IMG/VR virus record: IMGVR_UViG_3300037475_000162
Span: 888-64,887 of that record
DNA length: 64,000 nt
From: a virus
Taxonomy: Duplodnaviria; Caudoviricetes
Reading direction: 5' to 3' (one strand)
Shown here: one piece after another, positions 44,751 to 45,350 of the stretch
Position numbering within the stretch: position 1 is the first letter of the stretch
Layout of the letters: the number at the start of each line of letters is the position of its first letter
Translations under genes and position numbers: made by a program
Notes under the pieces: model-generated
Told to the model about the DNA's origin: nothing
What the model saw: the letters and a program-made list of their open reading frames with translations, nothing else
Databases searched by the model: none

Positions 44751-45350
44751 CGCGGCCACGGAACGGCTGCGAGGAATCGCGGGCGCGGGCCAGCACAGGA
44801 GATACCCGCCCCGCCGGTGTGAGCGATGGAGGCAGGGGCCGACCCCCGCCAACCCCGCGGTTCCGACAAGACAGTGAGGGAGAAGCGTGCCGAGCTTCCA
44901 CGCCCCGCTTGCGGGAGTGACCATGATCGGCCCCAGTACCTTGCTCGGGTTAGCTTGCGGGGTGACAGCCCGGAGAGACGGGATCGGGGGGCAGCGATCT
45001 GCCGGACAAATGGGAGAGACCACTGGGAAAACGTCCGGCCTCTGGTGTAAAGAGACGTGACAGCCGGAGAGACGGCAGATCCCCTGGACGCCGGCCCTTT
45101 GCGGCCGGGCCCCGCCGAGAGGCGGGCCGTAGCGACGGTCGGGGGACTTGGGGCTTGGGCGGGCACGGCGACCCGCGGTAATCCTGCAAAGACCACACGA
45201 CAGGAACCGGCCGAAAGAGGCTCAAGATAGGTAGCTGGTTCGACTCCAGCAAGCTCCACTGCCCGGCGGCAGCACTTCGCGGGGTGTACCCACGAAGTCA
45301 GGACATGATGGCTGGGCCTGCCGCCGGGCAAGACACACGGGAGACGGCAA
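44751..45350 (+). ncRNA. Candidate structured non-coding RNA region (GARAGA-loop hairpins, multi-stem junctions, tRNA-like domain)
   Basis: No convincing ORF in an otherwise tightly packed operon; two GTGACAGCC(C)GGAGAGACGG copies; 13-bp inverted repeat at 45260-45272/45318-45330. Confidence 0.6.
45150..45258 (+). tRNA. Non-canonical or degenerate tRNA-Ala(TGC)-like cloverleaf
   Basis: Acceptor GGGGCTT/AAGCTCC with G3:U70 and A73; D-like stem GCGGG/CCCGC; T-arm GCTGG-TTCGACT-CCAGC; TGC at the anticodon position but a weak stem; ~39-nt variable region. Confidence 0.6.

Follow-up and report, generated by a model that had tools for sequence, protein, structure and literature searches.

M1, a probable conserved phage RNA family in a non-coding island of a temperate soil phage, and its tentative likeness to put antiterminators

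The described systems closest to the RNA considered here are the put RNAs of phages HK022 and HK639. In the parts of PMC9378689 drawn on here, put RNAs are ~ 70 nucleotides (nt) in length, comprise two stem-loops, require no protein and act via the β′ zinc-binding domain. The RNA compared with them, a module termed M1, lies in an intergenic island at positions 44751–45350 of a 64,000-nt stretch of phage DNA (positions 888 to 64,887 of IMG/VR virus record IMGVR_UViG_3300037475_000162), referred to throughout as the window. As far as those parts of the source describe them, the put RNAs are, like M1, phage-encoded, built of two adjacent stem-loops and present in more than one copy per genome; they lie in an untranslated leader, a position seen for M1 in UPEC85 and Itty13, and their partner is a universal host enzyme, as the partner of M1 would be. 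The two differ in length, the M1 core measuring ~ 45 nt with a variable first hairpin, and in that M1 occurs in many phyla, often mid-operon and near tRNA genes. The place of the putL-like RNA of HK639 in the PL leader is also the place of M1 in one E. coli prophage, UPEC85.

The available evidence supports, with high confidence and as one joint reading, that the phage is a temperate phage from soil with the island in its early operon, that the island is an untranslated RNA carrying a canonical, a variant and a decayed copy of M1 together with a cloverleaf-shaped junction, a tRNA-like element and a Y-shaped hairpin, and that M1 is a conserved phage RNA family absent from Rfam 15. An earlier sequence-only reading had proposed an undescribed multi-domain phage RNA, and this proposal is borne out computationally: the stems covary, the bases of the loop and the junction do not change, and Rfam 15 contains no matching family. 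The plan of M1 is 5′-R-[AC NNN ... NNN GU]-GACA-[stem-GAGAGA-stem]-A-3′, where the first hairpin is designated P1 and the second P2. The family is defined by the R, a P1 of the form AC..GU, the GACA, a P2 with a GAGAGA loop and the A that follows. A covariance model, R1, was built from M1 instances. The island and the copies within it are as follows.

44751–45350, + strand: non-coding RNA island, from the 88-amino-acid (aa) gene (44484–44750) to the next gene (ATG at 45351)
44937–44983, + strand: M1 copy A, a variant recognized from the sequence; R1 matches P2 only, locally, with 14.1 bits at 44970–44981
44990–45022, + strand: decayed M1-like copy recognized from the sequence; R1 matches the loop only, with 6.1 bits at 45013–45020
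45030–45077, + strand: M1 copy B, canonical; R1 matches over its full length at 45023–45084 with 41.1 bits, E 3e-12

Copy B has all the features of the family. Its R is at 45030, P1 pairs ACGUC (45031–45035) with GACGU (45054–45058) around an 18-nt insert, GACA occupies 45059–45062, P2 pairs GCCG (45063–45066) with CGGC (45073–45076) around the GAGAGA loop (45067–45072), and the final A is at 45077. The copy holds an exact 20-mer, GTGACAGCCGGAGAGACGGC, that is common to at least 240 other loci. Copy A fits the M1 features by eye. Its P1 consists of ACCUUGC (44938–44944) and GCGGGGU (44957–44963), with two G-U pairs among them, followed by GACA (44964–44967), a P2 of CCCG (44969–44972) and CGGG (44979–44982) around GAGAGA (44973–44978), and A at 44983. 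Four of the five P2 pairs form, with a G-A mismatch at the base; the fully paired GCCCG/CGGGC form is found in locus L304 (L-numbers are the labels of loci collected for comparison). The decayed copy comprises the hairpin GGCAG-CGAU-CUGCC (44990–45003), a G, GACA (45005–45008), AA and UGG-GAGAGA-CCA (45011–45022). It has no GU before GACA and has lost most of the P2 stem, which places it outside the family.

The two long words quoted in the sequence-only reading are both present as given, GTGACAGCCCGGAGAGACGGG at 44962–44982 and the 20-mer of copy B at 45057–45076, and the gapped hairpin pattern has 2 sites in the window against 0.00 expected from shuffles. The two shorter hairpins that it listed were also located, TGG-GAGAGA-CCA at 45011–45022 and GCC-GAAAGA-GGC at 45210–45221. 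The + strand of the 64-kb window has five GARAGA-loop hairpins with stems of 3 bp or more, four of which belong to the island; the − strand has none. None of 1000 dinucleotide shuffles of the island reached four or more such hairpins (mean 0.02).

Homologues were collected and covariation was assessed on the M1 family, no close relatives of the phage having been found. Both stems of M1 covary. For P1, a complementary AC+NNN box lies 4–40 nt upstream of NNN-GU in 151 of 226 distinct instances, compared with 47.4 ± 5.4 (maximum 64) in 200 permutations of the NNN partners; instances were not chosen for pairing in this test. When a purine is required before AC, P1 is fully Watson–Crick in 111 of the 226 instances versus 21.0 expected. 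Where P1 has a single non-Watson–Crick pair, that pair is G-U in 35 instances and A-C in 8, the permuted values being 20.7 and 15.1, respectively. The excess of G-U over A-C indicates that the pairing takes place on the gene-sense strand, i.e. in RNA. Pair counts made on another alignment, A2, are biased, its instances having been picked for having P1, and were not relied on.

The P2 stems found in 2.88 Mb of collected loci comprise 238 canonical GCCG/CGGC stems and 27 other parses. Thirteen of these 27 are fully paired with a different sequence, 10 have one unpaired position and 4 are worse; the compensatory variants number at least 10, and the variant stems include GCUG/CAGC, CUCUG/CAGAG, AAUCG/CGAUU, CCUCG/CGGGG and GGUCG/CGACC. 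In 104 distinct model matches, a set seeded by the exact word, the GU, GACA, GAGAGA and the purine before P1 are invariant, and variants with GACU, GACG, a GAAAGA loop or a 7-nt loop occur outside the seeded set. M1 is followed by a 3′ tail of ~ 10 nt that is G-poor and AU-rich, with AT fractions of 0.61 and 0.58 versus ~ 0.42 (n = 201). R1 gave no match in 175 kb of unrelated phage loci.

No Rfam family matches M1. Against Rfam 15, Infernal gave 0 matches in the window at gathering thresholds, only tRNA-Sec (23.1 bits) and three irrelevant weak matches in the island at E ≤ 10, and nothing at the M1 sites of 38 further M1-bearing loci (gathering thresholds or E ≤ 1). Neither the sequence nor a description of M1 was found in literature full text, a search whose coverage excluded the supplementary motif list of PMC10690425. 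In the portions of that article used here (Fremin et al. 2023), 8,495 candidate structured RNA motifs from IMG/VR are reported and listed in supplements. Like M1, these are IMG/VR-derived phage intergenic motifs with covariation, and some are tRNA-like. Among the motifs discussed in the same portions of the main text none fits the description of M1, and M1 may be among the supplementary ones.

A blastn search of the island against 78 loci, fetched via the PAPS-reductase family, returned the 20-mer as the sole short word. The exact 20-mer occurs in at least 120 IMG/VR stretches and at least 120 stretches of species genomes. The genomes listed include Clostridiales, Bacteroidota (Barnesiella), Alpha-, Beta- and Gammaproteobacteria, Planctomycetota (Pirellula), Verrucomicrobiota (Akkermansia), Acidobacteriota, Bifidobacteriaceae and Parcubacteria. 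With a short piece of the window as query, blastn returned 12 named phage records; the loci of eight were examined, and seven were confirmed by R1; the locus of Oceanospirillum GJ44 scored only 20.3 bits with R1 and has a GAAAGA loop. A query from L157 against 5,426 genomes added one match, an E. coli prophage, also confirmed by R1, and five genomes scanned with R1 contained 1–3 matches each. Among 401 genomes of one class the exact 20-mer was found in the centre genome only (0 of 400 others; 0 for a reversed-pattern control), and R1 over 101 genomes of one family likewise matched only the centre genome, under strict filters with few candidates scored. The word is thus rare within genomes and was found in none of the 400 others, so that M1 has a broad taxonomic range yet occurs sparsely, the pattern to be expected if it belongs to certain prophages.

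Near-full matches on plasmids were confined to a 39-kb Morganella and a 28-kb Salmonella record out of 29 hit, the rest being short chance matches. A backwards-pattern control in the window gave 2 matches, both at one unrelated overlapping site (9950–9967). Synteny of M1 with the PAPS reductase gene was considered and rejected, R1 (E ≤ 1) matching in L002–L061 only L027, L032, L042, L061 and, weakly, L003. R1 found no match in L062–L079 and L329–L331.

M1 is co-oriented with genes: when neighbouring proteins were clustered, 21 of the 25 largest clusters shared its strand, and the 4 antisense clusters look like shadow open reading frames (ORFs) of high G+C. Among the protein families within ± 2.5 kb, the largest cluster accounts for 14 of 231 contexts and the next ones for 11, 10, 10, 9 and 9. 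This lack of an accompanying protein family would agree with a partner from the host. The usual site of M1 is an untranslated gap, in many cases one of 0.6–1.3 kb, as in the window, L032, L042, UPEC85 and the phages Itty13 and ctjtQ328. Arrays of 2–3 copies at a spacing of 40–155 nt occur in the window, L032, L042, L134, L135, L137 and Itty13.

In the E. coli prophage UPEC85 (Rac/HK639-like), M1 lies in a ~ 730-nt untranslated PL leader, after operator-like repeats. The prophage has no N-like gene, and a terminator-like hairpin follows its first ORF. UPEC85 (L323:4520–4650) and HK639 (L341:34320–34420, − strand) are nearly identical over ~ 45 nt at the start of the PL transcript and then diverge fully. 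The HK639 record, NC_016158, annotates a ‘putL-like antiterminator RNA’ right after the stretch common to UPEC85; past the same stretch the UPEC85 leader has a different sequence, which contains M1. The genes flanking the two leaders are unrelated, and a sharp mosaic joint lies inside the leader. In Pseudomonas phage Itty13 (L321, MW460249) two M1 copies are positioned at the head of the terminase operon. Besides these copies, the unannotated 880-nt gap there (2690–3170) contains a tRNA-like element of 98 nt whose anticodon region carries a 25-nt insert, and its layout is that of the window island.

Further settings vary. Two Hendrixvirinae phages have M1 between their lysis and packaging modules, and ctjtQ328 has it before the packaging genes, and such gaps between lysis or early genes and packaging genes reach 1.3 kb. 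In Stenotrophomonas phage phiSHP3 it follows the major capsid gene, as it does in L135, where a terminator-like hairpin occurs ~ 70 nt after the M1 array; in an Oceanospirillum phage it follows the replication genes. A complete M1 fold is also present inside the linker of a translated GapR-like gene in L027:3745–3794, L097:2291–3094, L178 and L325 (Bradyrhizobium phage ppBdUSDA122-1). These GapR-like genes of alphaproteobacterial phages encode a GapR DNA-binding domain in their N-terminal part (PF10073, E 2.8e-16), and the M1 core within them reads V-T-A-G-E-T-A. The occurrence of M1 inside such genes fits a co-transcriptional role better than self-cleavage or a 5′ untranslated region role. 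Other RNAs were seen on M1-bearing viral contigs: a pistol ribozyme at L089:2308–2374 (56.9 bits), 55 nt downstream of an M1 pair on an IMG/VR contig and without overlap with M1; an abiF RNA motif at L137:1977–2013 (43.2 bits); and a full tmRNA gene at L107:5751–6165, together with 11 tRNA matches, ten of them clustered.

A recurrent neighbour of M1 is a tRNA or an element shaped like one. ARAGORN places tRNAs 2–13 nt after M1 in 12 of 249 instances and 2 more at 31–150 nt, and 223 instances have none in the locus. Strict T-arm hairpins on the same strand number 52 in the interval from − 300 to + 200 nt around M1, compared with 2 antisense over ± 1 kb. A strict tRNA-shape descriptor identified 100 elements in the collected loci, 16 of which lie within 400 nt downstream of M1; among the 12 over-long ones (> 95 nt) the fraction is 3, namely those of the window, Itty13 and L091. 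With relaxed settings ARAGORN calls the long tRNA-like elements ‘tRNAs’ with inserts of 17–42 nt.

At least 10 loci contain, after M1 or after a tRNA, tRNA-like elements that are non-decoding, with the order 5′ acceptor-CG-GCGUG-loop-CACGC followed by a T arm. These elements have a 7-bp acceptor, a 5-bp ‘D’ hairpin, a variable middle of 13 to ~ 90 nt and an acceptor 3′ strand often followed by UUUU, and they were seen at L306:885–965, L101, L192, L198 (two), L199, L144 (two), L042, L032, L091, L256 and L323:5143–5270. The shortest, in L306, is 66 nt long and has no anticodon arm. Most are missed by ARAGORN. An HK639 ‘M3-like RNA’ was considered as a member of this group and proved unrelated. 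At L199:3354–3428 a 75-nt tRNA with anticodon UCA begins 5 nt after M1; its possible identities are an opal suppressor and a code-4 Trp tRNA.

Three further elements follow the M1 copies in the window island.

45080–45146, + strand: cloverleaf-shaped four-way junction, the minimum-energy fold (z − 1.51; 12 of 200 shuffles as stable)
45150–45258, + strand: tRNA-like element, 108 nt, cloverleaf fold; tRNA-Sec model 23.1 bits against a gathering threshold of 47, E 0.058
45260–45330, + strand: Y-shaped hairpin, closed by a stem of 13 bp and enclosing two smaller hairpins (z − 4.12; 0 of 200 shuffles)

All three had been drawn in the sequence-only reading, and each was recovered: the four-way junction as the minimum-energy fold, the tRNA-like domain as a real shape, and the 13-bp stem (45260–45272/45318–45330) as exceptional in stability. 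In the junction a 7-bp closing stem (45080–45086/45140–45146) surrounds three hairpins, in which no D-, anticodon- or T-loop motifs were found. It begins 3 nt past copy B, where tRNA genes begin in other phages (2–13 nt after M1), and no homologues of it were found. The Y-shaped hairpin has no U-tract and is not terminator-like. It ends 20 nt before the next start codon, and after it a ribosome-binding site and the ATG at 45351 complete the island.

The tRNA-like element folds with unexceptional stability (z − 1.20). Its 7-bp acceptor, GGGGCUU/AAGCUCC, has 7 of 7 pairs, including G1-C72, G2-C71 and G3:U70, with A73 at 45258. The D arm, GCGGG-CACGGCGA-CCCGC, is intact and has the GG, and the T arm, GCUGG-UUCGACU-CCAGC, has 5 of 5 pairs and a canonical loop. 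A 57-nt body (45177–45233) replaces the anticodon and variable arms, and CCA is not encoded. At default settings ARAGORN makes no call; it calls the element only at -ps90, with a 17-nt ‘intron’, and at -ps80 it gives only ‘tag not identified’ calls on a different 5′ strand. A true tRNA was rejected, since the anticodon arm is absent, ARAGORN is silent at default settings and the Rfam tRNA models score below gathering thresholds. A tmRNA was likewise rejected: G3:U70 and A73 are present, but ARAGORN at default settings and the Rfam tmRNA model find nothing. Thus the element shares the acceptor with G3:U70 and A73, the D arm with GG and the T arm with tRNA genes, the tRNA domain of tmRNA, Y-RNA mimics and viral tRNA-like structures, and differs from tRNA, tRNA-Sec and tmRNA in its 57-nt body in place of an anticodon arm, its scores below model thresholds and the lack of a recognized tag frame. 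G3:U70 is the alanine identity element, and an acceptor with G3:U70 and A73, a D arm and a T arm are features read by RNase P, the CCA-adding enzyme and alanyl-tRNA synthetase (AlaRS). Judging from the G3:U70 pair, charging by AlaRS is conceivable. The exact T-arm/acceptor word of the element was found in no viral contig, so that there is no sign of an attP copy there.

The island is probably non-coding. No frame of 44750–45309 has a G+C content at third codon positions (GC3) above 0.8, the level of real genes, and 0 of the 8 ORFs overlapping the island have a Pfam match (E ≤ 0.1), so no coding signal was found; the fold of the island as a whole is no better than that of shuffles.

The window record has 64,887 bases with 61–73% G+C and is an IMG/VR virus rated 99% complete by CheckV. 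A search for sequencing runs with the record returned a single one, a soil-metagenome DNA run that is possibly the source sample, and listed no RNA run. Almost all genes of the window are on the + strand. A tyrosine-integrase-like gene at 36348–37520, 7.6 kb from the tRNA-like element, and a short block of minus-strand genes at 38000–41000 mark a lysogeny region, in which no attP was identified. A PAPS-reductase-like gene (42128–43279) and a RecT-like gene (47662–48597) lie on either side of the island. The terminase and RecT of the window have < 34% identity to anything among 50,697 phage records. The island itself is a gap in a rightward early operon, whose genes otherwise abut around it, between the 88-aa gene upstream and a 131-aa orphan gene downstream. 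The 88-aa gene encodes a Cys/His-rich, zinc-ribbon-like tail at its end and has weak matches, phrog_15216 with E 3e-6 and UPF0167 under the cut-off. A homologue search with the 131-aa protein returned only itself. Close relatives of the phage were not found: scans of viral contigs with three neighbouring proteins, each taken singly, found nothing, a 701-nt blastn query had no match in phages, and a metagenome scan gave 3 loci only, at 53–54% identity and none with M1.

By analogy with put, M1 may be a co-transcriptional antiterminator or anti-Rho element, the favoured reading, to which a probability of roughly one in three is assigned. M1 would fold in the nascent transcript and act on the host transcription machinery as the HK022 put RNAs do, rendering RNA polymerase resistant to Rho and intrinsic terminators. 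The polymerase would then pass through long untranslated structured stretches, such as leaders and arrays of tRNAs and tRNA-like elements, and continue into the gene module beyond. A universal host partner may make contact with the GAGAGA loop, with GACA at the junction and with the base of P1 (A-U/C-G), and the tRNA-like elements may serve as RNase P/Z-type punctuation or as decoys. The structure, conservation, strand and genomic settings of M1 are observed; transcription of the island, the partner and the effect on termination are inferred. Rho and hairpin-dependent termination threaten long untranslated structured stretches, and the residence of M1 in such stretches supports antitermination. 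The array of L135, placed between the capsid gene and a terminator-like hairpin, is counted on the same side. A target common to all hosts would agree with the conservation of M1 in many phyla and with its lack of a partner among phage proteins.

Several observations weigh against a put-like role. R1 found no match in 22000–32000 of HK022, the immunity region, and across HK639 with filters off its best match reached 8.5 bits and was not at the annotated putL-like RNA; M1 is thus not a put homologue. A leader position is seen in UPEC85 and Itty13, whereas the window copies and many others are mid-operon. M1 often abuts a tRNA gene or a ribosome-binding site, which would also suit a role in processing or translation. 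With unrelated genes flanking the UPEC85 and HK639 leaders, the argument that M1 replaces the putL-like RNA rests on one mosaic junction. Terminator-like hairpins show no clear enrichment downstream of M1: they occur in the first 100 nt in 9 of 224 cases, compared with 0–7 for the majority of the remaining bins and 11 of 224 at 100–200 nt upstream. A boxA-like word is not enriched after M1, the enriched k-mers being GCAC, CACUU, CAAUU and similar. In the window, no promoter-like or terminator-like sites were found at 43900–46200, and the absence of terminator-like sites near the island counts in the same direction, as does the stability of the whole-island fold relative to shuffles (z − 1.00 on the + strand and − 1.15 on the − strand). 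For antitermination, one of the functions suggested by the sequence-only reading, the support is circumstantial and comes from the UPEC85 PL leader, with M1 at the place of the putL-like RNA of HK639; put homology and boxA enrichment are lacking. What that reading said of the nature of the RNA is supported, and its functional side not yet.

An alternative that is unlikely but has several points in its favour is that M1 acts in trans, as a small stable RNA that titrates a conserved host or anti-phage defence protein. Its release from the transcript would be due to RNase P, cutting at the tRNA or tRNA-like element that follows, or to RNase E, cutting within the AU-rich tail, and arrays would raise the dose. 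The location of M1 in islands of RNA genes (52 same-strand T-arm-like hairpins versus 2 antisense), the 16 of 100 tRNA-shaped elements within 400 nt downstream, the tRNAs 2–13 nt after 12 of 249 copies, the tandem arrays, the lack of a companion protein family and the ~ 10-nt AU-rich, G-poor tail are all consistent with such release. However, the copies within translated GapR-like genes would be hard to release as small RNAs, and 223 of the 249 copies have no downstream ARAGORN tRNA in the locus.

It is rather improbable that M1 is a processing or insulator element, either a new small self-cleaving ribozyme or an RNase target, that cuts upstream of tRNAs and ribosome-binding sites. Variable helices combined with invariant junction and loop bases resemble the cores of small ribozymes, M1 is not tied to any one gene family, and its 3′ boundary is sharp, with tRNAs 2–13 nt and start codons often 14–35 nt downstream; in L089 a pistol ribozyme follows 55 nt downstream. 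Indeed pistol, hatchet, twister, hammerhead and theta ribozymes are, like M1, compact, with variable helices and invariant unpaired bases, and lie in phage intergenic regions without a fixed gene. Nevertheless, no known ribozyme model matches M1 (E ≤ 10 in the island and, for 22 other loci, E ≤ 1), a cleavage site cannot be pointed to, and M1, unlike phage self-cleaving ribozymes, also occurs inside ORFs, where constitutive self-cleavage would destroy the GapR-like mRNAs that carry it. According to the parts of PMC10879173 considered, theta (HDV-like) ribozymes are arranged oppositely, with the tRNA at the 5′ cleavage site.

A similarly low likelihood attaches to M1 being an operator, read at its GAGAGA loop and GACA by an RNA-binding regulator that the phage encodes, after the manner of N/boxB or of a translational repressor. 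With its conserved purine-rich loop and, next to it, a conserved single-stranded word, M1 resembles boxB-type sites, the lambda and P22 nut sites pairing a hairpin with a purine-rich loop with a single-stranded word. The nut sites and the antiterminators of rrn leaders share with M1 a short purine-rich-loop hairpin, a single-stranded tail and transcripts that cross terminators. In addition, arrays suggest cooperative binding, and M1 is often located just before a ribosome-binding site. Against an operator, no protein family within ± 2.5 kb occurs in more than 14 of 231 contexts, no N-like family was found among the neighbours of M1, and the near letter-perfect conservation across phyla is unlike that of fast-evolving N/nut pairs. 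The lambda and P22 nut sites differ from M1 in that M1 has a hexaloop, is conserved across phyla and shows neither boxA enrichment nor a nearby N-like gene.

For the studied phage alone, the island could be the functionless, decaying remains of an M1-plus-tRNA array, which is improbable. The G-A mismatch at the base of P2 and the two G-U pairs of P1 in copy A, the middle copy without GU and with P2 mostly lost, the junction that is no more stable than chance and the tRNA-like element without a usable anticodon arm would all agree with decay. On the other hand, copy B is canonical at 41.1 bits, and the acceptor, T arm and D arm of the tRNA-like element are intact with only the body expanded; Itty13 and L091 carry similar long tRNA-like elements after M1. 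Moreover, 600 nt of dead DNA would be unusual where neighbouring genes abut.

Hardly credible is the notion that M1 is a coding sequence for the protein word V-T-A-G-E-T-A and that the island is a gene broken by a frameshift or by mis-assembly: although the 20-mer is in frame in the GapR-like gene of L027, L097, L178 and the Bradyrhizobium phage and the three copies of L032 lie in one open 558-aa frame, the two window copies occupy different frames at a distance of 95 nt, and each frame closes after 57 codons, the two copies of L042 are in different frames, most low-GC loci have no open frame across the motif, the identity is at the nucleotide level and includes rare A-ending codons, the stems covary with G-U pairs, and the long frames of L032 and L042, non-coding-like in composition, run over a small conserved gene that is read in a different frame.

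A 20-base core that is nearly unchanged across Firmicutes, Bacteroidota, Proteobacteria, Planctomycetota, Verrucomicrobiota and candidate phyla points to a very conserved partner or chemistry. To our knowledge very few phage RNAs have such reach, and RNA-only antitermination is so far known to us from a handful of coliphages. It is a tentative proposal, and an uncertain one, that M1 is a nearly universal class of phage RNA engaging a component common to all bacteria, as a protein-free antiterminator or anti-Rho element or as a ribozyme or decoy, and that together with non-decoding, possibly alanine-accepting tRNA-like elements it forms an ‘RNA island’ architecture of temperate phages. Should RNA polymerase or Rho be the target of M1, phages would have in it a general means of transcribing RNA islands that are not translated, and it would be a portable genetic part; as a ribozyme or a decoy, M1 would represent a new class. 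The main value of the finding lies in the M1 family and its recurrent pairing with non-decoding tRNA-like elements, to which it draws attention as elements that standard tRNA finders miss.

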